From a virus (lineage: Duplodnaviria > Heunggongvirae > Uroviricota > Caudoviricetes): a stretch of 64,000 bases of DNA. The translations under genes and the position numbers were made by a program. Positions 11,330 to 62,904 of this stretch are shown here, in pieces (position 1 is the stretch's first letter; every line of letters begins with the position of its first letter). The stretch lies in the IMG/VR virus record IMGVR_UViG_3300031998_000037. One strand, given 5' to 3'. The notes beneath the pieces are model-generated. The model was not told the origin of the DNA. It searched no databases and saw only the letters and a list, made by a program, of their open reading frames with translations.

Positions 11330-11330
11330 T

Positions 11331-11570
11331 ATGAGCTATTACTGCGAAGTTTGCGGTCATATAGGTGGTCACGCTTACGGCTGCCCAGAAGCACCATCGC
11401 CCAAACCTGTAACATATTGTACCTACTGCGATGAGCCTTTATATATCGGTGATGAAGCTTATCAAGCTGGTAATGATATTTATTGTGCTCAGTGCTGCGG
11501 TAGGATTGAAATAGAAGAGCCTGAAAGAGACTGGGATTTTGAGATAGATAAAAGGAGAGAGAATGAGTAA
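11331..11570 (+). CDS. small zinc-binding protein (multiple CxxC)
   Basis: CEVCGH, CTYCDE, CAQCCG. Confidence 0.35.
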   Translation: MSYYCEVCGHIGGHAYGCPEAPSPKPVTYCTYCDEPLYIGDEAYQAGNDIYCAQCCGRIEIEEPERDWDFEIDKRRENE

Positions 11571-12515
11571 CGAAAATCTAAGAATGGCACGAAAGATTAA
11601 GAATGATGAGTTCTATAGCCGCTATGAAGATATAGAAAAAGAGCTTGTCCATTACAAAGATCAGCTACGCGGCAAGATTGTTTATTGCAACTGTGATATT
11701 CCTGAGAGCAACTTTGTCAAGTTCTTGAATGATGTCAAAGACGAATGGGGCATTCAAGATGTATGGCATACCTCGCTTGACGAGGGTATAAGCTTTGATA
11801 GTGATTATGCGAAAGACTTACTAAGCAAATGTGATGTGGTCATAACAAATCCTCCATTTTCAATCACAAGAGAAAGGTTCGTTCCTATGCTTGAAGAAAG
11901 CGGCAAACAGTTTCTCTTTATAGGCAATCTAAATATGGCAACTATGCGAGAAATATTTCCGCTGATCCGTGACGGCAAACTATGGACAGGCTATACGCAC
12001 CCTAAAGAGTTCCTACAGCCAGATGGCACATACAAAAAGTTTGGTAATTGTTTATGGTGGACTAATATGCCTGTAGAAAAAGAGTTTAGGCTTGACACAT
12101 CAAAAAAGTATTATGGTAATGAAAGTAAATATCCTCACTATGATAATTATGATGCCATTAATGTTGATAGAGTTGCTGATATTCCTTCAGATTATTCAGG
12201 CGTGATTGGCGTACCCGTTACGTTCATTGAACATTATACCCCCACCCCGACAAGATAGGAGGGGACTTCGGCTCAGTATTGTCGGATTTAGAAAGGGAGC
12301 AGACGGCAAAGACCTTCACGCCAACGGAAGATATTATTACGGCAGATACCTTATCGTTATTGGATCATAGATGTGATCTATATAACGAAGTAGGTAGGGG
12401 GGGGTACGACATACATACTTCCATCGCTTGCTCATTAAGAGTCGTTGACGCATTGAACTGTCCAAGTTTAAATAATGAAAAGATATTTAAAAGATTAATG
12501 ATAAGGAGATTATAA
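11563..12515 (+). CDS. N6-adenine DNA methyltransferase (NPPF motif), split by a frameshift at a C5AC4 tract (12239-12248); also carries an in-frame G8 tract (12397-12404)
   Basis: 'CDVVITNPPFS' motif IV. The frame-1 ORF stops at 12258, but frame 0 is open from 12231 to 12515, so a +1 C would fuse them to ~317 aa. Confidence 0.55.
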
Positions 12516-16988: not shown

Positions 16989-18062
16989 TCAAAAATTTTC
17001 TCTTTGTTTATCACGTTCAGCCTTTAACATAGCCCTAAAATAACTGTAACGGTTAGCGATATTTTGCTGTTCAGATATAGCATTAAAGTGAGTATATTGT
17101 TCCTGTAAATAATGATACCTTGCAAACCCAATGCCAAGAGGATGTTCAGGCATATCCGTAGAAAATACAATTGCAAGCAGACTTTCCATTTCTTTTACTG
17201 AAAATTCATTATTACAAGCACCTGAGAAAAAGTCAAGTTCAACATCTTGTGTCTCTATTTCTTCTTTAATCTTGTCAACATCAATTAAATCTGAAAATCC
17301 CTCAAAGATAGGAATTTGTTTTTGAGCTGGTTCATTTTTAGTGATAGTAAACACAATAGATATCCACCTACCACCTGCACCTGTCTTGCCGCGCTCATAG
17401 GTATAGCTAATGTCTGTAAGTTCCTTTAAAGCCTTTTGACAGCTATCGAGTACATACTTTTTAAATAAAGACCAACCATTTTTATTTGAATATTCAGTTT
17501 CGGCAATACCGAGCAATTCTCTAAGTTCTTTTACAGGTATCTCTCTCTTCCCTATATTCTCGTATTGTTTTAAAATTTCATACATTCTAATTTGATTTGC
17601 TGATTTAAGGATCAGTGCATTCCAAAGTTCGTACTTAAAATATCTCTCTTTAAAATCAAACATTAAAGGCAATGCTTTATCGTGGGCATCTATCTGAACA
17701 TACCATTCGCCGTCCTCATTCTTATCAACTTCACATTCTTTAAAAAGCTGAAATCCAGAATATCCGCCACTCTCTTTTGGTATATTGACAACCTTACAAA
17801 GTAAGCTATTAGTGCTTGATTTAAGTTGCTGAATATTCATTCTACTAAACCCCATGATCTTCTGGAAGTCAGACAGTGGGAATCGAACAATTCTTGTTGA
17901 CTCATCTCTGGGGTTTATCTTAGATAGATAAATCGAAAAAAAGCGTAACTCTTGTAAGGATAGATTATTGGCTCTAATCTCGTTAAGGATATTTCTTTTT
18001 TCTACTATAGCTCCCTCATAAATAGTAGACATATATATCACCTCAATATTATTATAACACAC
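16989..18062 (-). CDS. rep: plasmid-type replication initiator (RepA_N-like)
   Basis: 357 aa whose N-terminal region resembles Firmicute theta-plasmid RepA_N; iterons lie immediately upstream. Confidence 0.6.
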   Translation of the reverse strand: MCYNNIEVIYMSTIYEGAIVEKRNILNEIRANNLSLQELRFFSIYLSKINPRDESTRIVRFPLSDFQKIMGFSRMNIQQLKSSTNSLLCKVVNIPKESGGYSGFQLFKECEVDKNEDGEWYVQIDAHDKALPLMFDFKERYFKYELWNALILKSANQIRMYEILKQYENIGKREIPVKELRELLGIAETEYSNKNGWSLFKKYVLDSCQKALKELTDISYTYERGKTGAGGRWISIVFTITKNEPAQKQIPIFEGFSDLIDVDKIKEEIETQDVELDFFSGACNNEFSVKEMESLLAIVFSTDMPEHPLGIGFARYHYLQEQYTHFNAISEQQNIANRYSYFRAMLKAERDKQRENF

Positions 18063-18063
18063 A

Positions 18064-18215
18064 TTCTATAGATTGTCAATGCTATCTATAGTATTATGCA
18101 ATGAAATCTATAGAATCGTGCAATACAATCTATAGTATCTTGCAATGAAATCTATAGAATTGTGCAATACAATCTATAGAATTGTGCAATACAATCTATA
18201 GAATCGATTCCGCAA
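18064..18215. repeat. iteron array: ~7 tandem 22-bp repeats (consensus AATCTATAGAATYGTGCAATAC)
   Basis: counted by eye at 22-bp periodicity, directly upstream of rep; 2 further copies at 18411-18448. Confidence 0.8.
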
Positions 18216-18410
18216 AGGTGCTATTTTAGGTCGTTTACGATAACCGAAAATATATATAAAATAAATAAAATACTTCTAAAACATCTTTCAAACTATCATG
18301 GAGCAAAAACTGATATTAATTTAAGACTTAAAGAAATAAAATTGGCAAAACAACCAAAACATAAATATAAAATTCATTATCAAACGAATTATAAAGTACA
18401 ATTCAATCAT
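18216..18410. other. AT-rich spacer between iteron groups (putative DNA unwinding element/origin)
   Basis: extreme AT content between the two iteron sets. Confidence 0.5.
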
Positions 18411-18448
18411 CTATAGAATTGTGCAATCAAATCTATAGAATTGAAAAT
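18411..18448. repeat. two additional iterons (ATCTATAGAATTG...)
   Basis: same repeat family as 18064-18215. Confidence 0.7.
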
Positions 18449-18652
18449 TAATGTCCGTAATTTAGAAAATCAATGTCCGTAATTAAAACTTTATGTTAAA
18501 ATTAAATGGCATTATTTGATGACTAAATTTGTCTTTTGCAGATAAATGTCCTATTTTATTATACGCAAAATAGGCAAGAAAAACACTTTGCAGAAATCTG
18601 TCCTATTTAGAAAATCAATGTCCGTAATTAAGAAAATTTATGTCCGTAATTA
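18447..18652. repeat. parS-like repeats: 4 copies of ATGTCCGTAATTA plus 2 degenerate TGTCCTATTT copies, downstream of parB
   Basis: copies at 18447, 18469, 18617 and 18639; the pairs are spaced 22 bp apart. Confidence 0.6.
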
Positions 18653-18664
18653 ATCTTGTTTAAC

Positions 18665-19867
18665 TTACGAGCAATGATTATTCCTATAACTATCCATCAA
18701 TTCCTGAATAGTTTTAAGTTCCTCAGCAGGGTTCATATCCAGCAATCTTTTGATTGCGGTATCAACGGCTTGAACTTCCTTGATAATCTTTTTGCTTTGA
18801 GCGATCTTGCCAGACTTATCCTTCTGAGCATCGTCAAGTCCCTTTTCGGCAGAGAAGATAGTATTCGTAAATATCTTCTTTACCTCACTATTTTGCTTTT
18901 GAGTTTTGAGATCAATGTCGCGGTCAAGCTGTTCAAGAGCTGCATTGTACTTAGCAACACTCTTTTCAATACTTGCCTTACGGGATTCAAGCTCAGGCGA
19001 TTGTTCTATATCAAGCTCCTTGTTGATATTTGCAAGCTCCTCATTTGCTTGTAAAAGCCTTCCATTATAATACATACGCGAGGTTTTATCTTTTGAAAGA
19101 GAAGTGTTTGTCTTTGAAATAATATTCTTAGCCTGTTTTGCAAAAGCGAGTGTGTGCTCGATAGCATATTTCTTAGTCTCAGGATCAGCGTTGTCCGCAG
19201 CCTTTAGAATATCATTGGCATAGTTCTGATATTCTTCTGGGAGCTGCGCAAGTGAAGCAGCCGTGTTGATATCAATAGCATCCGCATAGAGCAATTCCTT
19301 TAAAGGATTGATAAGCTCAGACGTAATGGCGATAAGCTTATTAGCCTGACGTTCACTGACATTAAAAGCCTGTGAAACATACTCTTTAAATTTTTGAGCC
19401 GCCTCTCGTTCAGCGGTTTCATCAAACTGCTTTATCTTAGCGAGAAAGCCTTCAATGATTTGAACCTTTTCTTCAATGCTATATTCTCTTGTTTCACTAT
19501 TGGCAAAGAAAAGCATTTTGAGAATTTCGAGCTGAGAAAGATTGCTTCTTACAGTCGCCTTAATCTTATCGCGTCCGAGGTACTTGACAGCCTTTGTGCG
19601 GCGTTCTCCAGATATGAGCAAGTATTTCGTAGGCTCTATCTTTGCAACCACAATATTATGCAGCAAGCCGTTCTCTTTGATATTCTCAGCAAGTTCTGCA
19701 ATGCCCTCGTCAGAGTCGCCCATATTGAAAATGTTATCCTGATTAAAAACGATTTGATCTATGGGGATAATATCAGTTGTCTCGATAGACTCCTGTTCCT
19801 TTTTGACGCTATCAGCAAGCTCATTAAAGCGGCTCAACGCCTTGTCGGTGTTTAACTTCTTAGCCAT
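18665..19867 (-). CDS. parB: ParB-family partition protein
   Basis: N-terminal ParB/Srx-like box ending in 'GERRTKA'; long helical C-terminus; translationally coupled to parA. Confidence 0.7.
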   Translation of the reverse strand: MAKKLNTDKALSRFNELADSVKKEQESIETTDIIPIDQIVFNQDNIFNMGDSDEGIAELAENIKENGLLHNIVVAKIEPTKYLLISGERRTKAVKYLGRDKIKATVRSNLSQLEILKMLFFANSETREYSIEEKVQIIEGFLAKIKQFDETAEREAAQKFKEYVSQAFNVSERQANKLIAITSELINPLKELLYADAIDINTAASLAQLPEEYQNYANDILKAADNADPETKKYAIEHTLAFAKQAKNIISKTNTSLSKDKTSRMYYNGRLLQANEELANINKELDIEQSPELESRKASIEKSVAKYNAALEQLDRDIDLKTQKQNSEVKKIFTNTIFSAEKGLDDAQKDKSGKIAQSKKIIKEVQAVDTAIKRLLDMNPAEELKTIQELMDSYRNNHCS

Positions 19868-20664
19868 TAATTAACGCCCCCTAAAATGATATTTTCAAGC
19901 TCCTCAGCGACAGCCAGATAATCAGCCGTGACTTTTTCATTCTTGGCATAATTTATCAATGGGTTGTGATCCGTAAGGCTCTTCTCTACAATGGTCGTCT
20001 TTCTGATCTCGGTATTAAAGAAATGGTATGATGTAAGATTAGCCTTGAATTGTTCAAGGTAAAAGTTCTGAGCTGCCGTGTTCTCCTTCTTTGTAAAAAG
20101 CAGCCCAGCGATTTTGAGATTTGGGTTGACATATTGCTGAATGTTTGTGATAAATTCATTCATGGCGAAGATACTGTCAATGCCGTACTCAGTCGCCTCG
20201 CAAGGCAGCACGGTATAGTTACTTGCTGTGAGGGCGTTTGTGGTTAAATTATTACGTGCAGGTGGGCAGTCGATAAAAACATATTCATATTCATCCTGTA
20301 TCTCTGTAAGCTTATTCTTTAAAATAAACTCTCTTGCTATTGGCAAAGCTGATAATTCAGTATCAGCCTTATCCAGATTGACGTTAGACGGCAGCAAATC
20401 AAGCCCGTCAATGTCAGTACCTATGGTAGCTTTACGGACGCTTAAATCGCCACATATGACATTGTAGACGCTTACCTCGTCTTTGCTGAGAAACTTTCCG
20501 AGGTAAGTTGTGGCATTTGCTTGCGGATCAAGGTCAACAAGTAGCACCTTTTTGTTTTTAATTTTAGCAAATATTGCAGCAAGGTTTACACTCGCCGTGG
20601 TTTTGCCAGCACCACCTTTACGGTTCAATAAAGAAATCGTAATCATTAATTTTGCTCCTTTCAC
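19867..20664 (-). CDS. parA: ParA/Soj-family partition ATPase
   Basis: deviant Walker A 'NRKGGAGKTT', 'VLLVDLDPQ'. Confidence 0.85.
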   Translation of the reverse strand: MKGAKLMITISLLNRKGGAGKTTASVNLAAIFAKIKNKKVLLVDLDPQANATTYLGKFLSKDEVSVYNVICGDLSVRKATIGTDIDGLDLLPSNVNLDKADTELSALPIAREFILKNKLTEIQDEYEYVFIDCPPARNNLTTNALTASNYTVLPCEATEYGIDSIFAMNEFITNIQQYVNPNLKIAGLLFTKKENTAAQNFYLEQFKANLTSYHFFNTEIRKTTIVEKSLTDHNPLINYAKNEKVTADYLAVAEELENIILGGVN

Positions 20665-20739
20665 TGTTTGAGTGTTTGACTGTTTGCTTCTTTCATTATA
20701 TCACACTTTATTTTAAAATGCAAGAGTTTTTTTGAAAAA

Positions 20740-20824
20740 GGAACTCAGTTCCTAAGCCAAAATTTTTTTGAAAAAGGAACTCAGTTCCCAGAGCAAAATT
20801 TTTTTGAGAAAAGAACTCAGTTCC
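20740..20824. promoter_or_regulatory. three tandem copies of the palindromic motif (GGAACTCAGTTCC x2, AGAACTCAGTTCC x1), each between T- and A-runs; upstream of parAB and downstream of the lysis genes
   Basis: copies at 20740, 20776 and 20812, ~36 bp apart. Confidence 0.65.
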
Positions 20825-20880
20825 TAAGCCAAAAAAATAGGGTACAGCAAGTCCATAATAAGACCTGTTGTACCCTAAGT

Positions 20881-49094: not shown

Positions 49095-50621
49095 TCACTT
49101 ATAATCTGAATTTGAATTAGGGTTGTCTACAGTGTTTTCAGAAGGTGAGTCCGTTTGTGGTCTGCCTCCCTCGTTACCGACTTCGCCGTTACTAAGCGTA
49201 TTACTACTTATAAGTGGGCGGTTGTATATATCAACGCCGCATTTGAGAATTGTGTTCTCCAGATAGCTTGCCGTATATGCATCTATCGGTTCTTGACCAA
49301 GTGCGGCAGCGTACCATAATTTCGACGGCAGCCCATACATTGCTGATTTCTGTAGTCTGTTTGCAACCTCATCTTTATTGAAACTATATTGTTCAAGAAA
49401 ATAGATTTCAAATAAATAATCATCATGTATCGACATTTCTCTTTGATATTTTACATTAAATACTCTTTCAATTTGACGTAGCAACTTCATCATCATAGTC
49501 GCATCAACTATGAGTGACAATTCAATTACCTTATAAGTAGGATTTGCACCTACGCCAAACAAAAGAGGGGATATACCAACATTATTGAATAAGTCTTTAG
49601 TCGCATCTTCCGTATAGTCTTTTTGAGCGTTAGTTGTATCTTTGAGAGTAATGCCTTGTGCCTTAAATGGATTGACGGCAATTCCAATTCCTTCTGGAAC
49701 TGCGCCAGCTATCTGCGTCCAATACTTTTGAATTTGTTCAAATGAAAGGGCTGGGTTGCCGTCGCTATCAGTCTCAACAGTATAATTGATAAGTTTATAG
49801 TTATCAAGAATAGCACCGTCCTTCTGAATTTCTTCATAAGTCTGAAGGTCTATGATAGCCTTGAAACAACCAGCAAGAGGTGGAATGATAAAGGGATATT
49901 CCTCATCAAACTTTACACAAATTTGTTTCTTAGGAATAAACCACCGCAGCGTTCTATCACCAGTAATACCCTTTTCTTCATCACCTTTATATAATGAATA
50001 TGCTTTTATAAATTCTCTACCATAAGAGGGGAGCAGTGCCTTAGTCTTTTTAGTGTCAAAATAACTAAGATCAAATGCAAATCGCCACACTCCGTTTTCA
50101 ACAGCCGCTAACTTACAGAACTTATGCAATAGAGGTTTTAAAAAGAAGCTGCGCTTATCCTCAATCATAAGACCATAATACACGCCATCTACAAGTGTGC
50201 GCAACATAACTTGTGGGTTAATATCCTTAAACTTAAAACGACTGCATTGTAAAGCATAGTTGATATATTCTTGCTCAAAATCATCTTTATCAATATTCTT
50301 TATATTTGCAATGGGGCGAATAACATAATTGTTAGTTAGGATTGTTGCAAGCATTATAATTGCTCTGCGGTAATGCGGCGAGATAGCAAAATAAAAACGG
50401 CTTACCTCTCGCAATACTTCTTCTGATCTGGGATTTGTAGGATCAGCTAATGCACCAAGAATAATCTTGCGTGGGTATTTTTTAAGGAACACGCACACTT
50501 CATCCATACTTTGTTTCAGATCAAGAAGCACATCTGAACGTAGCTTTGCAAATCTTTTGAGACTATATATCTCTTTTAATTCATCTCTTTCTTCCAAATA
50601 ATTCACCCCTTTCTTAATCAT
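49095..50621 (-). CDS. putative portal protein
   Basis: 508 aa immediately downstream of the large terminase. Confidence 0.45.
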   Translation of the reverse strand: MIKKGVNYLEERDELKEIYSLKRFAKLRSDVLLDLKQSMDEVCVFLKKYPRKIILGALADPTNPRSEEVLREVSRFYFAISPHYRRAIIMLATILTNNYVIRPIANIKNIDKDDFEQEYINYALQCSRFKFKDINPQVMLRTLVDGVYYGLMIEDKRSFFLKPLLHKFCKLAAVENGVWRFAFDLSYFDTKKTKALLPSYGREFIKAYSLYKGDEEKGITGDRTLRWFIPKKQICVKFDEEYPFIIPPLAGCFKAIIDLQTYEEIQKDGAILDNYKLINYTVETDSDGNPALSFEQIQKYWTQIAGAVPEGIGIAVNPFKAQGITLKDTTNAQKDYTEDATKDLFNNVGISPLLFGVGANPTYKVIELSLIVDATMMMKLLRQIERVFNVKYQREMSIHDDYLFEIYFLEQYSFNKDEVANRLQKSAMYGLPSKLWYAAALGQEPIDAYTASYLENTILKCGVDIYNRPLISSNTLSNGEVGNEGGRPQTDSPSENTVDNPNSNSDYK

Positions 50622-52470
50622 AACGTTTGGCTGGTCGAGCCATAAATAGTGTTGTTATATCCTGAACAGGCTGTTGTTTAACAACACTGCCTCTTCTTAA
50701 TTCATATAACCTATGTGCTAAAAGTATCAACACATAAAATCTATCATCGTGCATACGTGTTTCTTTTTCCTTAGATAGAGCATAATTTACAGTTGTCTTT
50801 TCAGCGTTTTGTGTTTTATGAATTGATGTTACTTCTGTTTTCATTAGGTCAATTTGAACTAATGCCATTTTTTCATCATCCGATAGCTCATGGTTTTCCC
50901 ATGTCTCATTACCATCTTTATCAACGCCAGTTATAACCTTTAATGAATCTTGCCCTGAGTATTCATAAGGGAATCTGATTACACCCAAATCCATTAACTC
51001 AATCATTTCTTCAACCATTTGAGTTCTGTATTTCTTTGGGCTAATAACTCTTAATTTATCACAAGCATTAGGGTAACGGTTGACAAAGCTTTGATACAAC
51101 TCATTGGTCTTATCAATAAAGCCTCGATGCTTCTTTCCAAATTTATCTGTATAATCATTCAGCAAGCCGTCAGCATATGTACTTACGCCGCCGCCAGCCG
51201 CACCAGCATCAACATTCAAAACATCTATATATTCATAATCTGGGTTTTGACCGTTATAGCATATTATCAATTTGCGCAGCTCTTCTAATTGCCTATTGGA
51301 GTCCAGCTTGTATTTTTGCTTTGTGAAAGTATCTACCATATTAACGCAATTTATTATATCTCCGCACCATCCAAGCTCTTTATCCTTATATATATTCATA
51401 ACACCCACAATTGAATTATCGTTTGTTCGCGCTGGATCAAACGCCAAAGCTATTCTGCTATTGGGCTGCCATTTAAGTGTAGGCAAATAGAACTTTTCAT
51501 TTCTGCGAATTACGTCCCACTTTATTATCTGACTACTTCCGCCGTCAGCAGTAGGCTGGTTGAAATACTCTCTAAGGGCTTTTTCTTTATTGCTCTTCAA
51601 AGCTGTCTCAACCTTGCTTCTTGTAAGCAGAGGAATATATGGCTCACCATTCATGTATGTCTGAATTGCAACATCGCATATCATATCACATACAAAATAG
51701 TCCCTATCTCCAGCAAGCATTCTCTTAGCATAATATTTGTAATGCTTATAGAATGTCTTATCCATCTGATCTTGCGATGATGCATATACCAGTTGTGTAG
51801 GTACTCTTCTCTTTTCAGTCTCAGGGTTAAAGTCATCTTCGGTAGAAGTTATAAAGTCTGTATTTTGCATAGCAAATGCTTCACAAACACTTATAAGCTC
51901 GTCAGAACAGAATGCGGCTTCATCAAAGAAAACAAGAGTTGCACGGCGGCTTCTTGCGGAGTCTGGTTTACTGTTCAGGGTATGAATTGTACTGCCATTA
52001 TAAAACTCTACTGAATAACCTGCTGGGTTGTGGCTAAAGCCTGTTTTATTCGTTGCAGATTTTGTTGTTTCCTTTTCAACAATATCCTTTAATGAACGAA
52101 TAGAGGCAGCCGTCTTTCCCATGCGTGTAACAATTTCTTCTATCTTTGTAAAGGTTTCCTTAGACTGATCTCCGACAGACGATATGATATATATAGCCTG
52201 ATTTTCATAAAGGACTGCTTTGAGTATCATAAATATTGCGCCCAAAAATGATTTACCAAAGTTACGACTACAGCACCATACACTATGTTGGGCATTCCAT
52301 GTACTTTGCAATATCCATTTCTGCGCATCAATCAAACGAATGCCGAGTAAGTCCTCACACGCAATACAAGGATTTCGCCTATAAAAAGCTATAGACTCAG
52401 CATCTAATTCATATATTCTTTTTTTTATCGGTGTGAGAATGATTTTACGCCTCTTCATCACTATCACCAT
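50614..52470 (-). CDS. terL: terminase large subunit
   Basis: 618 aa; Walker-B-like 'TLVFFDEAAF'; position in front of the portal. Confidence 0.65.
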   Translation of the reverse strand: MVIVMKRRKIILTPIKKRIYELDAESIAFYRRNPCIACEDLLGIRLIDAQKWILQSTWNAQHSVWCCSRNFGKSFLGAIFMILKAVLYENQAIYIISSVGDQSKETFTKIEEIVTRMGKTAASIRSLKDIVEKETTKSATNKTGFSHNPAGYSVEFYNGSTIHTLNSKPDSARSRRATLVFFDEAAFCSDELISVCEAFAMQNTDFITSTEDDFNPETEKRRVPTQLVYASSQDQMDKTFYKHYKYYAKRMLAGDRDYFVCDMICDVAIQTYMNGEPYIPLLTRSKVETALKSNKEKALREYFNQPTADGGSSQIIKWDVIRRNEKFYLPTLKWQPNSRIALAFDPARTNDNSIVGVMNIYKDKELGWCGDIINCVNMVDTFTKQKYKLDSNRQLEELRKLIICYNGQNPDYEYIDVLNVDAGAAGGGVSTYADGLLNDYTDKFGKKHRGFIDKTNELYQSFVNRYPNACDKLRVISPKKYRTQMVEEMIELMDLGVIRFPYEYSGQDSLKVITGVDKDGNETWENHELSDDEKMALVQIDLMKTEVTSIHKTQNAEKTTVNYALSKEKETRMHDDRFYVLILLAHRLYELRRGSVVKQQPVQDITTLFMARPAKRYD

Positions 52471-53572
52471 TCTTTAATTTTTGAATTTCCAAAAGCAGTT
52501 GCCTTTTTTCCTCTTGTAAATCATCTACCTTTTCCTGAAGTTTAGTAACCATTTCTCTTTTTATTCCATCAATTTCACGCAAGTCATTTTCATCAAAGAA
52601 TGTATTTTTCTGTATTGCATTCATTGATACTTCTGCCGCCCATCTTGTGCCAGCAGATTTAAGTTGATCGTAATAATCTGCCTCAGCTCTATCAAAATTC
52701 TTCTCGCGCAGATTTCGCATGAGATAAGTAAGAGTTGATTTGCCAGCATCTTTATTTGACCTGTTCTTTACAGATATCTCATTTTCCTTTGCAATCTTAT
52801 CATTTGACATAACAAGCCTGCTTTTTAATTCATTAAGGGCTTGGATATCTTTGCTATCACTTAAAGGTTTAAGTTGTGCAATCAGCAAGTCATACTGTCT
52901 GATCTGATTATTATTATTTACTATCTGAATTATCTGAGACATCTTATAGTTATCTTCTACGACCTCATCATCATCAAGATACTTAACAAGCTCGCTAAAC
53001 AGATAACGCCTGTCCGACGATTGATAACCTGCAAACGGATCATAGCCTATAACCTCAATTACTGTTTGCATATTATTCTGTTCTTCCTCAGTCCAGTTTG
53101 CCTCAAACATTTCGTCAGTTTCTTGCTTTGACCTCAAAAACTTTTCATTATTAATTGACGACATAATATAGTCAACAAAAGTTTTATTTTTGTTTTGCGA
53201 TAGGTTAAGCCGCTTTATATATTCCCCAAGTCGTATATCCTCACGGCTTTTCTCTTTCATTTGCAGATATGTTTTTTCTGAGAAGAACCAACCCATTTCA
53301 CAACAAGTTACCAATAAAGCAACTTCTTCGTCCTGATATTTCTCTTTCATTCTGCCAAAGAAATCATCACAGCAGCAAGCACATATTGTACTGTAATTTT
53401 CATTTCCATTATATAGTGCATTCTGTGCAACCTTGAAAAACTTGCCTTCAGGATCTTGGACAAGCTTGCCGCAGCAAGAGCACTTATATAATGGCGGCAA
53501 TGTCTCCAAATCTACCTTTGCATATTTAGGCTGCTTTTTTCTTGTTGAAGTTTGTTTTGTACTTCTTGCCAA
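52445..53572 (-). CDS. putative terminase small subunit/DNA-binding protein with zinc ribbon and C-terminal coiled coil
   Basis: position upstream of terL; 'CSCCGK...' motif; larger than a typical TerS. Confidence 0.3.
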   Translation of the reverse strand: MARSTKQTSTRKKQPKYAKVDLETLPPLYKCSCCGKLVQDPEGKFFKVAQNALYNGNENYSTICACCCDDFFGRMKEKYQDEEVALLVTCCEMGWFFSEKTYLQMKEKSREDIRLGEYIKRLNLSQNKNKTFVDYIMSSINNEKFLRSKQETDEMFEANWTEEEQNNMQTVIEVIGYDPFAGYQSSDRRYLFSELVKYLDDDEVVEDNYKMSQIIQIVNNNNQIRQYDLLIAQLKPLSDSKDIQALNELKSRLVMSNDKIAKENEISVKNRSNKDAGKSTLTYLMRNLREKNFDRAEADYYDQLKSAGTRWAAEVSMNAIQKNTFFDENDLREIDGIKREMVTKLQEKVDDLQEEKRQLLLEIQKLKNGDSDEEA

Positions 53573-54534
53573 ACTGAACTCACTCCTTTAACTCGATCAC
53601 GCAATAAATTTAAAAAATCCACAAAAGTTATATTAGGAATATAAGAAAAATCTTTCATTATACGACAATAGATTGTGGTAATTAAATCATCTGAAACATT
53701 TTGAACAAACGGTTCGCAGTAATTCCAGTATTGTTTACATACTTGCAGATAGTCATTTTTGTTCTCAGGGCAATCGTCAAGCACTATATTAAAGTATTGA
53801 TAAATAACCACAAGATTTTGTAATGCACGAAAAGTAATTTTATCACCTGACATATTTCTGGCAAGACATTCTTCTAAATAATACATTATTGCAAGAACGT
53901 ATGTTCGCTTATTTTCGTATAATGATTGATGCGTCACAGACTTAGGATTGTCCCTCCACATTAATGTTGTTATCGGTTCTTCAATTATCTTAGCCCCTAA
54001 ATCAATAAGAATTTGATGGAACTTAACATCTTCATTAATGCGCAATCTTTCATCAAAATATAGGTTGTTGTCCAACAAATATTGACGTTTATAAACTCGA
54101 CCATGACACCATGTAGGTGATTTACTAATCTTTCTAATCGCAATACCATTAGGCTGTCTTATCTCACTTTCAAATCCGCTGACAAGCATATCCGCATCTT
54201 CTAACTTAATTCGATTGTACAATATCTCTAATGCAAGACAATTTGTAAAACAATCATCAGCATCCAAAAACATTATATAATCAGATGTAGAGTTTTTAAT
54301 TCCTGTATTCCTTGAAGCACCGCAGCCACCATTTTTATCTCGCACTATATATTTAATGTGCAGTTCACCAAAACTTGCCGTGTCAATAATAGCATCATAA
54401 TTTATACCATCACAATCATTAACAATTATGACCTCTATCTCGTTAGAAATACTTTGCATTGCGATTGAATGAAGTGACTTTGCAATAGTGTCTTTAGCTT
54501 TATAGCAAGGTATTACAACACTTAATTTATACAT
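53512..54534 (-). CDS. family 2 glycosyltransferase
   Basis: 'LSVVIPCYKA', 'IIVNDCDG', DxD 'FLDADD'. Confidence 0.7.
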   Translation of the reverse strand: MYKLSVVIPCYKAKDTIAKSLHSIAMQSISNEIEVIIVNDCDGINYDAIIDTASFGELHIKYIVRDKNGGCGASRNTGIKNSTSDYIMFLDADDCFTNCLALEILYNRIKLEDADMLVSGFESEIRQPNGIAIRKISKSPTWCHGRVYKRQYLLDNNLYFDERLRINEDVKFHQILIDLGAKIIEEPITTLMWRDNPKSVTHQSLYENKRTYVLAIMYYLEECLARNMSGDKITFRALQNLVVIYQYFNIVLDDCPENKNDYLQVCKQYWNYCEPFVQNVSDDLITTIYCRIMKDFSYIPNITFVDFLNLLRDRVKGVSSVWQEVQNKLQQEKSSLNMQR

Positions 54535-54596
54535 AATATCAATCCTTTAATTCAAAATGGTGCAGCCCTTGTCTCGTGCAACTCAGGCTACATAAT

Positions 54597-54616
54597 GGGG
54601 GAGTGCGACACTCCCC
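54597..54616. other. GC-rich hairpin GGGGAGTG-CGAC-CACTCCCC upstream of the late operon
   Basis: perfect 8-bp stem, seen in sequence. Confidence 0.5.
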
Positions 54617-54693
54617 AGTAGGAGGAAATAAAAAAGTAAATGTGCAGAGTTTAAGGGAAGTTTATTAATTCCATCCCTTAAAATTTTGCGAAA

Positions 54694-54706
54694 GGAACTG
54701 AGTTCC
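54694..54706. promoter_or_regulatory. GGAACTGAGTTCC palindromic motif (reverse-orientation copy) followed by AATTCAAAAAAAA, upstream of the GT2-terminase operon
   Basis: exact reverse complement of the other copies. Confidence 0.6.
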
Positions 54707-54934
54707 AATTCAAAAAAAACGGTGTAGGGGTTCGCACACCGCAAAGCGAAAATTGTATCATTCGCTCATGCCCACGTACTTTGCATACGTTTAGACGTAA
54801 ATCGGGGTTATGAGCTATACAGCAGTTTTATGTCCTCTGCAAGACATGGTGACGATTGCGAGACTTGAACTCAGCATTGCGCCCGTGAAAGGGGCGTGTC
54901 CTACCTTTAGACGAAACCGCCACAATAATGCGCA

Positions 54935-54956
54935 CGTTTGCATTGTCCTGCAAACG
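54935..54956. repeat. inverted repeat CGTTTGCA-N6-TGCAAACG, flanked by direct repeats ATAATGCGCA (54925-54934 and 54959-54968)
   Basis: seen in sequence. Confidence 0.6.
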
Positions 54957-54986
54957 GTATAATGCGCATTGTTGCAAGCCGAAAAT

Positions 54987-55020
54987 CAAAGTATCGTTTG
55001 TGCGCACAAACGATACTTTG
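54987..55020. repeat. 34-bp perfect palindrome CAAAGTATCGTTTGTGC|GCACAAACGATACTTTG
   Basis: seen in sequence; both halves are exact reverse complements. Confidence 0.85.
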
Positions 55021-55284
55021 CAAGAGGTGCTTACAAAGCTCTTTTCATGGTTATTAAAGTAAACCTCAATAACCTTTCAACAATATCTTCCTTGAACTGG
55101 CAAGGACACCAATCTAAATGCTCGTAAAGAGCTGAGTATTAAAGACCTTGCGTGGGACACTTCTACGAGAGGTGTGCAAGGTTCTTCTCAGTGAGCTTTT
55201 TTATTTTTATAAGGACGTGGCTCTACGTCCTTATCTTCTGAGAAAACATAGCTTTTGCAATATAACGTGTTCGATGTTATACTA

Positions 55285-55358
55285 TTGGTTGCAGCTCTTA
55301 GAATCGAACTAAGAACATAAGGGTATGAACCTTATATGATACCATTTCACCAAACTGC
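55285..55358 (-). tRNA. tRNA-Met/fMet-like (anticodon CAT) with a C1-A72 mismatch
   Basis: manual fold: acceptor CGCAGTT/AGCTGCA, D-arm GTGA-AATGGTA-TCAT, anticodon arm TAAGG-TTCATAC-CCTTA, 4-nt variable loop, T-arm CTTAG-TTCGATT-CTAAG, then ACCA. Confidence 0.6.
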
Positions 55359-55416
55359 GGCATGACAGGTTAGTTATAGTCCAACCTTCACGAATGACTT
55401 CTCCCGTCAGGAGGAG

Positions 55417-55492
55417 TGGTGTCAAAAGCAGGGGTTGAACCTGCGACCTTCGCCTTATCAAGACGCTGCTCTGCCAACTGAGCTATTCTGAC
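55417..55492 (-). tRNA. tRNA-Ile (anticodon GAT)
   Basis: manual fold: acceptor GTCAGAA/TTTTGAC, D-arm GCTC-AGTTGGCA-GAGC, anticodon loop TTGATAA, T-arm GCAGG-TTCAACC-CCTGC, then ACCA; 76 nt. Confidence 0.75.
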
Positions 55493-55545
55493 ATCGCCTC
55501 TTTCGAGGCGTTTGCTATTTGTAAAGCGCGGCACATTTCGCGCAT

Positions 55546-55965
55546 TTATTTGCATTCAATCCGAAAAGGGATTTTATTGCCTGAAATATCATAATCCATA
55601 GCAGATATTGCATCATATTCAATATAAAACGCTCCGCTATAATCATACATAGGTTTTTTCATAAAGATCGGAGCTACACATATAATTGCTCCAGTCTCAA
55701 AAACAGTTATCATCATATTGTCATCATTCATCCGAGCAGTGTTTATTTCATCATCAAAGGAATATCCACTCTCAGTATCAAGAGCAAAACTCTCACCGTT
55801 AATCGTTCTTTCAAACAAAGATGAGAGAATACCTTGTGTATCTTGCCAATGACATATAATTGAAGCATAACCGTCTGACATCACTACAAATATAAAGTCT
55901 CTCACAAAATCCTCAAAAGACTTATACTTCCGAATAATATTATTCATCTCCGCCACCGCCAACAA
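55546..55965 (-). CDS. hypothetical protein
   Basis: ORF. Confidence 0.3.
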   Translation of the reverse strand: MLAVAEMNNIIRKYKSFEDFVRDFIFVVMSDGYASIICHWQDTQGILSSLFERTINGESFALDTESGYSFDDEINTARMNDDNMMITVFETGAIICVAPIFMKKPMYDYSGAFYIEYDAISAMDYDISGNKIPFRIECK

Positions 55966-56311
55966 GCTTTATTGTGCTGCCAGCGAACACAAAGCTTTCT
56001 GGATCGCAGTCACCAATAGCATCTTTGTCTATGATATAATAACCGTCACCACAGAATGGCATACCATCACCTTCGATGTTGATTGCTTTTTGACAATAGA
56101 TTTTTTTATCCTCACATATATCAATAAGCCAAGCTTCATCATAGTCATCCAAATCTGGAGGGCTAAGTTCTATACTACGAATTTTAGTATCTGGCAGACT
56201 TATAAACTGTTTAAGTATTTTCTTTGCCTTGTTATAACTGGTAACTATACTAACAGGTTCACCAGTATAAAATTGTTCAAGAGCTAATGCAAAAATATTT
56301 TTAGCCTTCAT
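55940..56311 (-). CDS. hypothetical protein
   Basis: ORF. Confidence 0.3.
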   Translation of the reverse strand: MKAKNIFALALEQFYTGEPVSIVTSYNKAKKILKQFISLPDTKIRSIELSPPDLDDYDEAWLIDICEDKKIYCQKAINIEGDGMPFCGDGYYIIDKDAIGDCDPESFVFAGSTIKLVGGGGDE

Positions 56312-57721: not shown

Positions 57722-59146
57722 TTATATTTCAAACCTATCTCCCATTACAGGTGTGTGTACTTTTGAACTTCTATCCGCAAAACTTAAACTTTTGCGGAGC
57801 ATTTTTGAAAACTCTATCTTACCAGCCTTTTCCCCATGAACAAGATATATTTTGTCATATGGCATATCTGTATATCTTTGCAATAATTCCTTTTGGCAAG
57901 CATGACTTGAAAAGGAGTTGAGACAAACTACATTTGCATTGTTCTTAACCTTTACGCCGTCAATCTCTACATAGCGTTTATTATGTTGTATTTGATATGC
58001 TACAGATTTTTCATCACCAGCATAACCGCAAAAACATAATCTGTTTTCACTATCTGGTAGAATAGATTTAAGCCATCCAATAATACGACCTGCCTTTAAA
58101 AAGTTAGAAGTCGATATTACAACCTGACTTGTTTTGAGCTGCTGCCATGCGATGCTATCCTCAGATGTGTCAACCCATTCTATATTTTTCCATGATATTA
58201 CTTTTTTCCAAAGGTCATAATCCTTTTCAATAACCCTATCCCAAACATTGCTTACCTTTTTTGCAAGCGGTGCATCTATGACAATAGGTGTGCTGAAAGT
58301 TTCATCATGCCCATATATCTTATAAAGCTCGGTCAAAATTTCCTGAGTACGCTGTAAGCTGAATGCACCAAACACAACCTTTTTTGTGTTTTGTTGACAG
58401 CATTGATCTATAACCGTTTTTATCTTTTCAATATCTTTATCTCTATCCTTTTGCTTGTGTGACTTTGTGCTGCCACCATATGTACATTCAGCTATGACGG
58501 CATTTGCATAAGGCATAGGTTCATAAGGCAGAATATAGTCTTTATTAATATCACTGCCAATGTCGCCTGTATAATTCAGATACTTTATTGTTTCACCAAG
58601 CTTAAAGGTAAGCCTGATTTGTGCCGCATTGACGATATGTGCGGCGTGATAAAAACGTAAAGTGAGATCATCAAAAAGAACTATCTCCTCATTAAATGGC
58701 AGCTCGGTAAGATGCTCATATGCCATATCTATATCAGATTGCTCATATAAAGGCGTTGCTTTTATACCATGACGCTTTTCAAGCTTTACACAATCAGATT
58801 GAAATATCTTTGCGCTATCCTCCCACATGATTTTAGCAAGCGGCTTTGAATTTTGAGGCACGTAAACGTTGCCTCTATATCCACGCTTGAACAGATAGGG
58901 GACAAGCCCCCAGTGGTCAAGATGTTGATGCCCTATAATAACGGCATCTAAATCTGCAAAGGGGACTTTATAGTTTCGCTTATTCACTGTATATTGGGTA
59001 AGGACATCATCACCAGAAGTCTGGTACAAGCCAGCATCAAGCAAAATCTGCTTATCATTAAAGGTAATGTAATACATTGAACCTGTAACGCCATCGCCAG
59101 ATTTGCCAACGATTTCAACCCTTACCTTGTTTTTGCTTTTGCTCAT
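57722..59146 (-). CDS. MBL-fold beta-CASP-type nuclease/hydrolase
   Basis: 'IIGHQHLDHWG' HxHxDH motif; 474 aa. Confidence 0.6.
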   Translation of the reverse strand: MSKSKNKVRVEIVGKSGDGVTGSMYYITFNDKQILLDAGLYQTSGDDVLTQYTVNKRNYKVPFADLDAVIIGHQHLDHWGLVPYLFKRGYRGNVYVPQNSKPLAKIMWEDSAKIFQSDCVKLEKRHGIKATPLYEQSDIDMAYEHLTELPFNEEIVLFDDLTLRFYHAAHIVNAAQIRLTFKLGETIKYLNYTGDIGSDINKDYILPYEPMPYANAVIAECTYGGSTKSHKQKDRDKDIEKIKTVIDQCCQQNTKKVVFGAFSLQRTQEILTELYKIYGHDETFSTPIVIDAPLAKKVSNVWDRVIEKDYDLWKKVISWKNIEWVDTSEDSIAWQQLKTSQVVISTSNFLKAGRIIGWLKSILPDSENRLCFCGYAGDEKSVAYQIQHNKRYVEIDGVKVKNNANVVCLNSFSSHACQKELLQRYTDMPYDKIYLVHGEKAGKIEFSKMLRKSLSFADRSSKVHTPVMGDRFEI

Positions 59147-60264: not shown

Positions 60265-62904
60265 TTAAATGTTTTCGGTTGCAATCATTTGGCTTCTTCT
60301 AATTCTGTTTCCTTGAACATTGTATTTTATTCTGTATTTTCTTTGACATTCAGCACACCTGCACTTGCCATTAACCTTGTTTATTTCTACGCCACAATCG
60401 ACACACACATACCCATACTTGGGTTTGTTTGCCAGAATGTTCTCATAAACAATATCCCCATAAACGTTAAAAAAGAACTCTTTAAATCTTCTGTCCTTAA
60501 AAACCGTATGCTCTTTAAACATATCCTTTACCAGCATATCACAAATCTCATACTGAGCATAGTCAAGCTTCTGCATCGCCACAATGATCTCACTGATAGC
60601 AGGGGAGTTATAATTCTCTTCCTTGCCTATTTTCAGTTTAACCTTTGATACCACATCACTATATGCCTTTAAAACAGTCTCGTCAACTTCAATGTCGGGA
60701 TTGTTCATCAACATTCTATAATCAAAGCGTTTCCTGTCCTCAAAAGTAAGTTTGAAGTCTGATTCAGGATAAAGCTTATATATGCGATTTACGATACAAT
60801 CATTTACAGGCTCAACCTGATCCGCCGTCTTATCCTTTGCATAAACAAAGAAGGCTGGCAGTTTTTTGTTGACATACTTTGATATAAGTTCCTTAATATC
60901 ATTTGGCGGAACAGACTTATATAATGTCTTAGCATAATCAATGACCTCATTATTTACCATACATAGATACTTCAAACAATCCATAGCCTCTTGCTTAGTG
61001 TCGGGATTTATTATCTCGGTACTATTTTTTATCTTGCTGATATTGTTTGAAACAATACCTATATTGCCGCCCGTGAACGCATTTGATAGTCCGCGATATC
61101 TACTGTCCGCCGTAATAGCTTCTTTTGCAGCCTTACGCATATTGTAATATAGCGGCACAACTCCGACCTGATTACGCTTGGCAAGATCAATTATATTTTG
61201 ATCCTGTATAATTAAAGTCTTATCTCCGTCAACATCATACATGAGGATTTTACTTATAACATCATGCGTACTTGCATAGCAGCCGTCAGTAATAAACCAT
61301 CTTTCAAGTTCCTGACTTGTGACGTTGTTGCGTATAGCGTGTTCAAAGTAGAGGTGTGGACTACGCAGACAATCAACCTCTTTGCCAAATTCATGTAACC
61401 TACAATAAACCTCACCGTCAGCAAGGAGTCCCGTAGGTACTTTATCCCCCAAAAAGAGCCATTGACAAAAAGCGTAATAGTCTGGCAGCAAGAATGTATA
61501 ATAGCCGTTAACTCTGAACTTTGCTGAATATAAATCCTTGACCGATTTTTTATAGAAGTCTTTTAGCTGCTCTCTGAAATAACTATCCTTTAACAGACCA
61601 TTGTATTCTATGAGGCATTTCTGCATACCATTATATTTACTCTTGGGCTTATTTGGCTTAATCCCAAAAGTTTCAAGCTGTACATTTTTATCTGAGCAGA
61701 TGCCGTTAATAAAATTCACGCTATCCGAGCACATCTGTTTAAGCTCCGCGTCTTTGTAATCAATGAAGCTCTGGAGCATCTGATAGTTCAGATGAGACTT
61801 TTTGAAATAGTCCTCCTCCACATTACACGTTCCAGCACAGCAGCCGTTTTTCTTAAAGCGTTCCTTATAGTCGTCCCAACTATCAAAGTAGGCATACATT
61901 TTGAGCTGACTTTTTGTAAAGATGATTTGAATATTATCCTCGAATATATCCCATTCTTTGCCCCATATATCTTTTATTTTAGAGGAACAACCATACTCAC
62001 GCACAAAGCCTTTAAAGTCAAATACACCAAGTAATCCCTTTGTCCACGGCATACGTACCATGAAATTCTTTTTGCTCAGTTCAGGGCTTATCATACCTGC
62101 GCCGTCTGTATGAGGAATAGTAACGGGCATAGTCTGACGAGTAATGCTATAGTCTCTGTCATCTACATAGTCAACCTCGGTCACAACATTTGTCTCAAAG
62201 TCATCAACCACTATGCACCGATCTATGTCAAAGTCTTTCCATTCTTCGGTTGCAGAGTTGCAAAGAGCCAGATATGCATTATATTTATTTAGGTTCATAC
62301 CGCCCTTTGCGTTTACCTCATCAACTGTAAGACCACAGGTAAGCTTGCCCCAACACTTGTCTAATAAATCCTCACGCACAAACACAGCCTTCTTAGTTCG
62401 GATTTGACCAGCACTACTTGCAAAATATACATAACGACAGCCATTGTGACAAAAGCCTTTGTGTATAAGATTTTCAAGCACTTCAAAGTAAAAGACCGAA
62501 ACAACCATCATTTGTTCATTTACTGTAGTATTCTCGGCTGTTTGTCGCACGTTCAGATTTAACGGGATCATATCAAGGCTACGAGTAAGCTCACTGCTGA
62601 ATACGGATATTCTGCTGCGCTCAGTAAGTTTTCTTTCATTAATGTGCCTGTATCGTTGCATATTGCCCTTCATCATTGAAAGAAGAGTTTCTTTTAAAGA
62701 AGTAAGTTCCTTAGAGACAGCCTTATATTTTTCTTCTATAACGAAACTTACAGCCGCACTCATTCCATTATCTTTTAAGATAGCCTTATATGCTGACTTT
62801 AAGCCGCGAAGCGTATACATCTTACGCTCGACCTCGCGCTCATCATCAAAGTAGAAAGCCGAAGTATCAATCCCATAAATGCAATATTGTTTATCTAACG
62901 CCAA
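60265..62904 (-). CDS. large hypothetical protein (879 aa) with C-terminal Cys4 zinc ribbon; no P-loop or polymerase motif recognised
   Basis: 'CVDCGVEINKVNGKCRCAEC' at the C-terminus. Confidence 0.35.
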   Translation of the reverse strand: MALDKQYCIYGIDTSAFYFDDEREVERKMYTLRGLKSAYKAILKDNGMSAAVSFVIEEKYKAVSKELTSLKETLLSMMKGNMQRYRHINERKLTERSRISVFSSELTRSLDMIPLNLNVRQTAENTTVNEQMMVVSVFYFEVLENLIHKGFCHNGCRYVYFASSAGQIRTKKAVFVREDLLDKCWGKLTCGLTVDEVNAKGGMNLNKYNAYLALCNSATEEWKDFDIDRCIVVDDFETNVVTEVDYVDDRDYSITRQTMPVTIPHTDGAGMISPELSKKNFMVRMPWTKGLLGVFDFKGFVREYGCSSKIKDIWGKEWDIFEDNIQIIFTKSQLKMYAYFDSWDDYKERFKKNGCCAGTCNVEEDYFKKSHLNYQMLQSFIDYKDAELKQMCSDSVNFINGICSDKNVQLETFGIKPNKPKSKYNGMQKCLIEYNGLLKDSYFREQLKDFYKKSVKDLYSAKFRVNGYYTFLLPDYYAFCQWLFLGDKVPTGLLADGEVYCRLHEFGKEVDCLRSPHLYFEHAIRNNVTSQELERWFITDGCYASTHDVISKILMYDVDGDKTLIIQDQNIIDLAKRNQVGVVPLYYNMRKAAKEAITADSRYRGLSNAFTGGNIGIVSNNISKIKNSTEIINPDTKQEAMDCLKYLCMVNNEVIDYAKTLYKSVPPNDIKELISKYVNKKLPAFFVYAKDKTADQVEPVNDCIVNRIYKLYPESDFKLTFEDRKRFDYRMLMNNPDIEVDETVLKAYSDVVSKVKLKIGKEENYNSPAISEIIVAMQKLDYAQYEICDMLVKDMFKEHTVFKDRRFKEFFFNVYGDIVYENILANKPKYGYVCVDCGVEINKVNGKCRCAECQRKYRIKYNVQGNRIRRSQMIATENI

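Follow-up and report, generated by a model that had tools for sequence, protein, structure and literature searches.

Positions 54535-55545 of a 64,000-nucleotide (nt) sequence from a virus of the class Caudoviricetes (IMG/VR virus record IMGVR_UViG_3300031998_000037; the whole stretch is hereafter called the window) form an island of phage RNA genes, unusual in content and of a general type already known, and not a new kind of element. In the explanation that we favor, which taken as a whole stands slightly better than an even chance of being right, this gap is a cluster of co-oriented RNA genes at the junction between a YonO/repair module and a late block of ~38 kb (packaging, structural and lysis genes) in an SPbeta-like phage-plasmid; YonO is the single-chain RNA polymerase that transcribes the late genes of SPbeta (PMC5467207). 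Along the minus strand, from 5' to 3', the island contains two GC-rich hairpins, tRNA-Ile, tRNA(CAU), one repeat of the 6A RNA, an abiF-like hairpin, a conserved four-helix module, tRNA-Glu, a DUF3800-I-like RNA with its terminator and a structured leader, after which the late genes begin. All of its RNA genes and RNA helices lie on this strand, which is the sense of the neighboring genes, the longest open reading frame (ORF) wholly inside it has at most 59 codons for amino acids (aa) and terminator-like hairpins are enriched (5 found against 1.2 expected). A first-pass annotation had called the region unusually structured for a phage intergenic region, and rightly so, because the gap is an RNA-gene cluster rather than an intergenic spacer; the non-coding RNA (ncRNA) that it offered as one explanation among others is supported more strongly than it was proposed, every structure listed there mapping to an RNA gene or to a sense-strand helix.

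The four-helix module accounts for the palindrome and the nested repeats of that annotation. The 34-bp perfect palindrome at 54987-55020 (17+17; its chance expectation in 64 kb is ~64000/4^17, roughly 4e-6 by our own arithmetic) forms helix 2. It is enclosed by helix 1 (55028-55035 with 54971-54978), and between the two stands a conserved loop, CUUUGAUUUUCG, whose TTGATTTTCG core is invariant. Helix 3 joins two UGCGCA stretches (54963-54968 with 54929-54934; TGCGCA is self-complementary) that belong to the ATAATGCGCA direct repeats at 54925 and 54959. These repeats flank, as had been described, the CGTTTGCA/TGCAAACG inverted repeat (54935-54942 and 54949-54956), which forms helix 4. The TATAAT-like boxes ascribed to the direct repeats fared less well: a TATAAT does occur in the second repeat, but on the plus strand, antisense to all genes here, and most relatives have CATAAT instead.

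The module was aligned over 10 distinct phage loci, recovered by terminase kinship and by pattern searches, with a mean column identity of 88%. In its helices 88% of the cells are paired, against 23-51% in controls with the partners shifted by 1-3 columns, and in 12 pairs both members have changed. G-U cells number 32 on the tRNA-sense strand and 2 on the other strand, and one relative, L066 (the related and comparison sequences are designated L plus a number), is without the DNA palindrome core (TGTGTGCATA) yet keeps U-G and G-U pairs. The window copy folds at -50.2 kcal/mol (z-score, z = -6.9). We read the palindrome as an RNA helix and not as a DNA site because its pairing in relatives relies on these sense-strand G-U wobbles; the alignment speaks for a gene-sense structure of RNA (or of a single strand) rather than for a cruciform or a symmetric protein site. 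The covariance model derived from the alignment gives the window copy 129 bits and finds at most one copy per phage, with none in L001 and L010. Where present, the module occupies one slot, past the homologue of a 139-aa ORF and before the glycosyltransferase/terminase genes, even with flanking proteins that are only 20-45% identical. Homology among the relatives stops exactly after GCGCATTAT; 0-3 nt past the module there follows tRNA-Glu, tRNA-Met or another tRNA (L084), or an ACCA-ending hairpin (L003, L006). In 185,579 representative bacterial genomes a module pattern matched 41 times, about the number expected by chance, and no true module was among the matches.

Other roles tried for parts of the island were rejected. 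As a dispersed phage promoter or operator, TGCGCATTAT has just 2 occurrences in the window, both in the island, and its one-mismatch matches are at chance level. In AATGCGCATT, tried as a symmetric operator, the left half is variable and the right half invariant among the relatives. A hairpin promoter of the phage N4 type on the template strand was discarded since the wobble pairs fall on the non-template strand. As an observation made by eye, short ACCA-ending hairpins stand where other relatives have full tRNAs (L003 5646-5690, L006 3585-3635 and, on the minus strand, L084 near 4520-4560); judged by their sequence, these may be tRNA-like mini-helices or tRNA remnants.

Two tRNAs had first been reported in the island. 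The Ile(GAT) and CAT predictions are upheld by both ARAGORN and Rfam; the actual count is three, since tRNA-Glu(TTC) had been missed, and a supposed GC-rich hairpin at 54881-54899 turns out to be its anticodon arm. In Rfam all three score above the tRNA gathering score of 29 bits, in concordance with ARAGORN (Table 1). The initiator-like character claimed for tRNA(CAT) from its C1-A72 mismatch was examined against the features of initiator tRNA-fMet, in which 1:72 is left unpaired, the lower end of the anticodon stem is made of three G-C pairs and A11-U24 is present. The mismatch is flagged by Rfam, and position 1:72 is also unpaired (G/A) in the tRNA(CAT) homologues of L001 and L009, the former being ~89% identical to the window tRNA; on the other side, only two of the three initiator-type G-C pairs are there and 11:24 is U-A, as in elongators. 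The initiator-like character is therefore only partly supported by the sequence, and an elongator tRNA-Met or a lysidine-modified tRNA-Ile2 is also possible.

Structured elements adjoin the tRNAs. Between the stop codon of the 139-aa ORF and tRNA-Ile lie a GCGCG-N8-CGCGC hairpin (55526-55543) and a CGCCUC-GAAA-GAGGCG hairpin (55495-55510) that ends 2 nt before the tRNA; together, as RNA, they fold at -20.2 kcal/mol (z = -3.3), and the GAAA-loop hairpin is found again in L084, upstream of a tRNA-like helix. The trailer hairpin of tRNA-Ile has a 23-nt exact match in L003, and the same trailer follows ACCA-ending helices in L001, L003, L031 and L084.

A hairpin AAGGACGT/ACGTCCTT had been noticed at ~55228-55250; it exists, at 55209-55234, some 18 nt away, and is the hairpin of a 6A RNA scoring above the Rfam gathering threshold (Table 1). 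The window copy is made up of this hairpin (8-10 bp, loop GUAGAGCC), a linker rich in A and AAAGCUCACUGAGA; its fold has z = -4.95. A search of viral contigs for the conserved 6A core yielded two kinds of locus. In one kind (L012, L016, L021, L035, L037, L046 and L052), two adjacent 6A repeats of ~51 nt are followed by a homologous ORF of 135-151 aa, as established by Rfam and by sequence. An intrinsic terminator separates the repeats from the ORF in each of the five loci read (L012, L016, L021, L037, L052); a promoter, TTGACT-17-TATAAT, is plainly visible in L016, and the 6A arrays of L012, L037 and L052 come after similar -10 boxes. Tandem repeats of this length with a ToxN/AbiQ-fold gene, and a promoter and terminator where read, are features shared with the type III antitoxins ToxI, AntiQ, CptI and TenpI.

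The fold of the 6A-linked protein was predicted because its family has no sequence match in Pfam, PADLOC or PDB. For an AlphaFold2 model of one member, with a pLDDT of 94 (predicted local distance difference test), the top four PDB matches of Foldseek are ToxN, ToxN(Bt) of B. thuringiensis, E. coli ToxN and AbiQ, followed by MazF/Kid, and two members of the family bear the name 'AbiQ' in their source annotation. The 6A loci look like an unannotated type III toxin-antitoxin family with a ToxN/AbiQ-fold protein. The likeness of this protein family to ToxN, CptN and TenpN is one of fold only, without sequence match, and the antitoxin or decoy role of the RNA is putative. In a separate observation, the protein database holds at least 83 clusters of homologues. 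The 6A repeat itself contains a predicted second stem, GAGC (loop) with GCUC (downstream), which crosses the A-rich linker and is paired in 14 of 14 repeats; one of these has GGAC:GUCC instead, a double compensatory change that amounts to a single covariation event, and slid controls are 0-48% paired. An H-type pseudoknot is hence predicted from the sequence, as in the solved antitoxin CptI, a two-repeat H-type pseudoknot with an A-rich loop (PMC4627078).

A side observation concerns another RNA motif in two of these loci: in L016 (6255-6327) and L035 (1860-1932), the gene of the 6A-linked toxin has skipping-rope (RF02924, 64 bits) about 150 nt downstream, so that two orphan RNA motifs cluster at one putative defense locus. 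Skipping-rope was tied to the DUF3800 motif set by its discoverers (PMC5737381). A literature search returned no function for 6A and no link between 6A and type III systems, though the supplement of the 2017 discovery paper fell outside the search, and nothing functional on skipping-rope or DUF3800-I after 2017.

The other kind of 6A locus comprises the window, L031 and L055, each with one repeat; the three copies are near-identical and their flanks differ. By tblastn no toxin homologue was found in any of them (best E = 0.31 in the window), and no second, degenerate copy accompanies the window 6A at E up to 10. Compared with type III antitoxins, the window thus has a single repeat without adjacent terminator or promoter of its own and without a toxin gene, and it fails to qualify as a toxin-antitoxin system of type III on the counts of repeat number, terminator and toxin. 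It does retain all columns that are invariant among the toxin-linked repeats and, by analogy, looks like an orphan type III antitoxin RNA. The nearest parallel is phage PhiTE, which escapes the ToxIN system by expressing pseudo-ToxI, antitoxin-like repeats without a toxin gene; this too is a ncRNA locus in a genome that also carries tRNAs (PMC3475682).

Directly 3' of tRNA-Glu stands a full-length match, 141 nt long and found at a relaxed Rfam threshold, to DUF3800-I (RF02969), a motif named for a DUF3800 protein gene nearby (PMC5737381). The window RNA has in common with it a core of several stems, conserved junctions that contain UAA and, on the 3' side, an intrinsic terminator, here an 8-bp stem (54719-54742) followed by U8. 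A syntenic match after tRNA-Glu in L001 is likewise full length and scores 43.0 bits, 1.2 under the threshold; between the two copies, 6 pairs are changed on both sides and still paired: four belong to the outer stem, which has six pairs, and two to an inner hairpin. We treat the window RNA as a genuine but borderline DUF3800-I relative because its L001 copy shows these compensatory changes in sequence. A degenerate DUF3800-I pattern retrieved from viral sequences L001 again and otherwise chance matches only. DUF3800 proteins appear in the literature that we found only as RNase H-like accessory proteins of CRISPR loci.

The abiF motif (RF03085) has been shown to be an RNA antitoxin, RCd22, of AbiF (PMC12373285). 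The window hairpin of 37 nt aligns without gaps to all 37 abiF positions and has the same length, layout of helix, bulge and loop (6 bp, a bulged A and 3 bp) and CUCU start of the loop. Its homologues in relatives show compensatory changes, and that of L003 reaches 28.9 bits. Given its score, discussed below, the window hairpin resembles abiF in architecture only. In L055 the homologues of this hairpin were seen to be doubled, on both sides of its 6A.

The wider comparison of related phages places these elements in a variable setting. An island occupies the same position in each of ten phage contigs related by terminase, and these islands are mosaic, with lengths of 0.77-3.3 kb and 0-2 tRNAs of differing identity, compared with three in the window. 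The closest relative found in this way is L001, whose terminase is 93% identical. In L031 the order 6A, module, tRNA-Glu is that of the window in a more compact form. L031 also has, as an observation apart made at 10707-10560 and about 10440-10300 (minus strand), a further structured-looking stretch of ~130 nt downstream of tRNA-Glu, ending in CACCA, after which comes an ORF whose N-terminus resembles an IS200/IS605-type TnpB (MFKSYKFRLYPN...). Against 50,697 phage records, the island DNA retrieved generic tRNA similarity only.

From these elements a mode of action can be proposed. Gene-sense transcription would yield the island as a single precursor or a small number of them, and RNase P and RNase Z would cut at the tRNA borders and free the small RNAs between them ('tRNA punctuation'); release by tRNA enzymes is suggested because the module and hairpins abut tRNA 5' ends exactly and conserved trailers follow the CCA. 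The tRNAs would support late translation or replace tRNAs cleaved by the host. The orphan 6A RNA would bind and inhibit a ToxN-like abortive-infection RNase of the host, as pseudo-ToxI does for PhiTE, the DUF3800-I-like and abiF-like RNAs may likewise bind their usual protein partners, and the four-helix module would be a stable processed RNA or a leader aiding late transcription. Taken to its full extent, the proposal would make the island a dedicated anti-defense locus: one tRNA-punctuated transcript of orphan partner RNAs (6A, DUF3800-I, abiF-like and perhaps the module), each holding off a different host abortive-infection nuclease that is regulated by RNA, with tRNAs to replace the cleaved ones. 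We advance this tentatively, at clearly less than an even chance.

The T4 tRNA region also encodes two stable RNAs, C and D, and clusters of this type resemble the island in having co-oriented tRNAs interleaved with structured RNAs in a gene-free stretch, for which release by tRNA enzymes is plausible. The island differs from them in that its non-tRNA elements come from families otherwise tied to bacterial toxin or defense proteins, and in its seat at the middle/late junction of a YonO-type phage.

A number of points weigh against the favored explanation. The DUF3800-I-like RNA scores 44.0 bits, 0.2 under the gathering threshold of 44.2, and differs from the known motif in being fused 3' of tRNA-Glu in a phage and in its genetic company, no DUF3800 protein being matched by Pfam among the 56 ORFs of the window. 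The abiF-like hairpin, at 15.2 bits, is far below the gathering score of 37, which the L003 copy does not reach either, and no AbiF (Abi_2) protein was detected in the window. For the 6A-linked toxin, the absence of sequence matches is compounded by modest Foldseek values (best E 3.9e-3, template-modeling (TM) score about 0.5). L001 has tRNA-Glu and DUF3800-I without 6A or a canonical module, so no single element of the island is indispensable. Wild-type PhiTE, with 1.5 repeats, is unprotected until its repeats are expanded (PMC3475682), which makes the single 6A repeat of the window a reason for caution. The layout of the transcript is uncertain because the terminator at 54719-54742 stands between the island and the late genes. 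Lastly, transcription, processing and decoy activity of the island are all things that we infer, and the decoy view presumes a host with the cognate toxin or DUF3800 protein.

Where the module is concerned, the main rival is transcription control, in which the module would be a late-transcription control element and the tRNAs and small RNAs passengers in the leader; we consider it rather unlikely. The module would act either (a) as a promoter/initiation region for the YonO-type polymerase, with a start at the G just past GCGCATTAT, or (b) as a cis-acting leader RNA that lets the polymerase pass the 54719-54742 terminator and continue into the late operon of 38 kb. Phage HK022 put RNAs are cis-acting leader RNAs of this sort, and the module, as two long stem-loops upstream of a terminator, resembles put RNA. 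Its position speaks for control, with no more than a single module per phage, always between the YonO/exonuclease module and the glycosyltransferase-terminase genes; so do a nucleotide conservation far above that of the flanking proteins and the end of homology at GCGCATTAT with differing RNA genes after it, as at a promoter/gene boundary. The known biology of SPbeta points the same way: its YonO starts the whole late operon at one site upstream of an unannotated ncRNA with which the late transcript begins, from a promoter yet to be defined, and is without the flap domain used in hairpin-dependent termination (PMC5467207). SPbeta and the window both have a large non-coding stretch between the polymerase gene and the terminase/structural genes. 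Yet the sense-only wobbles favor a transcribed RNA, so that version (a) needs a second, upstream promoter or a DNA hairpin of the non-template strand. The conserved TTTACA-18-CATTAT hexamers of the module would start a transcript inside the tRNA, and L001 has the same late genes without the canonical module. There is no similarity, moreover, between the island and the SPbeta gap holding the YonO promoter; the two also stand on opposite sides of the exonuclease gene, the gap upstream and the island downstream. This gap (10025-11706 of SPbeta, L225), the reported site of the YonO start and ncRNA, was observed to span 1.7 kb from yonN to yonK in which no gene is annotated, and it contains no tRNAs.

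An improbable alternative is that the island is a recombination hot spot which gathers mobile RNA cassettes from hosts or phages (tRNAs, tRNA-like helices, fragments of toxin-antitoxin and defense systems), its non-tRNA parts being decaying, functionless hitch-hikers. Phages with terminases of 82-93% identity do differ strongly in island length and content, only some of them having 6A; the order of the blocks changes from locus to locus, and the TnpB-like ORF follows the island in L031. Unlike decaying DNA, however, the blocks maintain base-pairing through compensatory and wobble changes, and the orphan 6A holds every nucleotide invariant in toxin-linked repeats and is near-identical in three phages despite their different flanks. 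We give very little credence to the last alternative, that the palindromes mark a DNA site, be it a packaging site (pac/cos) adjacent to the terminase genes or a further origin of replication, as the first-pass annotation had also suggested. The large terminase gene is ~2 kb downstream, a perfect 34-bp palindrome could extrude as a cruciform and the island holds one copy of a dispersed 13-bp palindrome. Against this, the palindrome of the relatives is imperfect as DNA and pairs only as sense-strand RNA, SPbeta-like phages, whose YonO polymerase this phage shares, start packaging upstream of yonO rather than between it and the late genes (by analogy a pac site would be expected upstream of yonO here as well), and GC skew does not change at the island. 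The idea of a second origin finds no iterons or other tandem repeats here with Tandem Repeats Finder; the iteron array is found instead at 18061-18204, where it adjoins the Rep3 gene.

Phage tRNA clusters, and one RNA mimic of an antitoxin, PhiTE pseudo-ToxI, were already known. What appears to be new is that 6A has the hallmarks of a type III antitoxin, for an unannotated toxin family of ToxN fold; that complete, toxin-less 6A copies reside in RNA islands of several SPbeta-like phages, here near a partnerless DUF3800-I-like RNA; and that a conserved four-helix RNA of ~120 nt marks the middle/late junction in phages with a YonO polymerase, always abutting a tRNA or tRNA-like helix. The observations bear on the roles of DUF3800-associated and 6A RNAs and on how YonO-type phages start or protect late transcription. 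If the tentative anti-defense proposal were true, it would give a first functional handle on 6A and DUF3800-I as inhibitor RNAs of toxins or nucleases, and would mean that phages stack RNA decoys in the way they stack anti-CRISPR proteins.

Table 1. RNA features and sites of the island, listed 5' to 3' along the minus strand (window coordinates)
Feature	Position	Strand	Evidence or remark
Two GC-rich hairpins past the stop codon of the 139-aa ORF	55495-55543	-	Terminator-like scan
tRNA-Ile(GAT)	55417-55492	-	ARAGORN; Rfam 61.7 bits; encoded CCA end
Trailer hairpin CUCC-UCCUGAC-GGGAG	55401-55416	-	Immediately past the CCA end of tRNA-Ile
tRNA(CAT)	55286-55359	-	ARAGORN; Rfam 55.0 bits, C1/A72 mismatch flagged; encoded CCA end
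6A RNA, single repeat	55186-55236	-	Rfam RF02925, 48.7 bits (gathering 41.2), model positions 1-52
abiF-like hairpin, 37 nt	55145-55181	-	6 bp, bulged A, 3 bp, loop CUCUC...
Three small phage-specific hairpins	55049-55140	-	GCUC-UUUAC-GAGC; UCCUUG-N6-CAAGGA; GGUUAUU-N12-AAUAACC
Four-helix RNA module, ~120 nt	54925-55045	-	Absent from Rfam; ends 3 nt before tRNA-Glu
tRNA-Glu(TTC)	54847-54921	-	ARAGORN; Rfam 44.8 bits; encoded CCA end
DUF3800-I-like RNA with 3' intrinsic terminator	54707-54847	-	Rfam RF02969, full-length match; directly 3' of tRNA-Glu
Dispersed 13-bp near-palindrome GGAACTCAGTTCC	54694-54706	none	One of 8 sites in the window
Late-operon leader	54558-54682	-	Structured; contains hairpins

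Genes of the window are on the plus strand up to ~16.7 kb and on the minus strand from 17 to 64 kb. The island is flanked by the 139-aa ORF (55546-55965) and by a gene for a family-2 glycosyltransferase (53512-54534), downstream of which follow a 375-aa ORF and the genes for the large terminase (50614-52470), the portal (49095-50621) and structural proteins. Upstream of the island are encoded an exonuclease, a beta-CASP/RMMBL ribonuclease-like protein, ClpP and an 879-aa protein with a Pfam match of the RNA-dependent RNA polymerase (RdRP) type. The latter (60265-62904, minus strand) is the orthologue of SPbeta YonO, with 41.8% identity over 97% of its length; YonO is a two-barrel RNA polymerase, and proteins related to the 879-aa protein were noted in Clostridium botulinum and Enterocloster phages. 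The beta-CASP/RMMBL protein (57722-59146, minus strand), a metallo-beta-lactamase of the RNase J/CPSF type encoded a few genes upstream of the island, is a candidate processing enzyme for island transcripts.

The strength of the Shine-Dalgarno sites, which are of the AGGAGG type and precede most window genes, and the YonO orthology point, as far as sequence can tell, to a Bacillota bacterium as host; homologues were found in Lachnospiraceae-type Bacillota and in viromes of the rumen or of digesters. A promoter motif of the Bacteroidota type, TAnnTTTG, had been entertained after TACTTTG was found to recur, and was dropped because these same two features indicate a Bacillota host. Sigma-70-like promoters are not enriched in 54000-56000 (11 found against 7.1 +/- 3.3 expected), and the promoter scan found no consensus-like sigma-70/SigA site with 16-18 bp spacing on the minus strand inside the island.

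Because Rep3, iterons, ParA and ParB are all present in the window, the element looks like a phage-plasmid. The gene of the Rep3 initiator (16989-18062, minus strand) adjoins 22-bp iterons repeated 6.6 times (18061-18204), more 22-bp repeats occupy 18404-18653, and ParB (18665-19867) and ParA (19867-20664) are followed by a 36-bp x 3 array at 20727-20834.

Minor structures complete the island. The three small hairpins between the abiF-like hairpin and the module include a block, AGCUCUUUACGAGCA, common to L066, L071, L076 and L109. The late leader contains a hairpin UUUAAGGGA-N15-UCCCUUAAA (54650-54682) and a GC-rich hairpin GGGGAGUG-N3-CACUCCCC at 54598-54616, which had already been pointed out and is confirmed; the leader fold has z = -3.95 and -2.86, and the GC hairpin and the sequence after it are kept in L001. 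A tentative helix, GUAGCC...GGCUGC-ACCA (54558-54591), was read by eye just before the ribosome-binding site of the glycosyltransferase gene, the first late gene.

The near-palindrome GGAACTCAGTTCC begins at 1947, 9292, 16058, 16973, 20740, 20776, 20812 and 54694, which makes 8 sites against 0.05 expected. Three of these copies make up the 36-bp x 3 array upstream of parA. All sites except that at 9292, which is inside the NrdD gene and has no such runs, are intergenic or at a gene start (7 of 8) with T-runs and A-runs around them. GGAACTCAGTTCC is a DNA-level site, possibly for a partition or regulatory protein, or else may be a weak bidirectional terminator, and is probably unrelated to the RNAs of the island.

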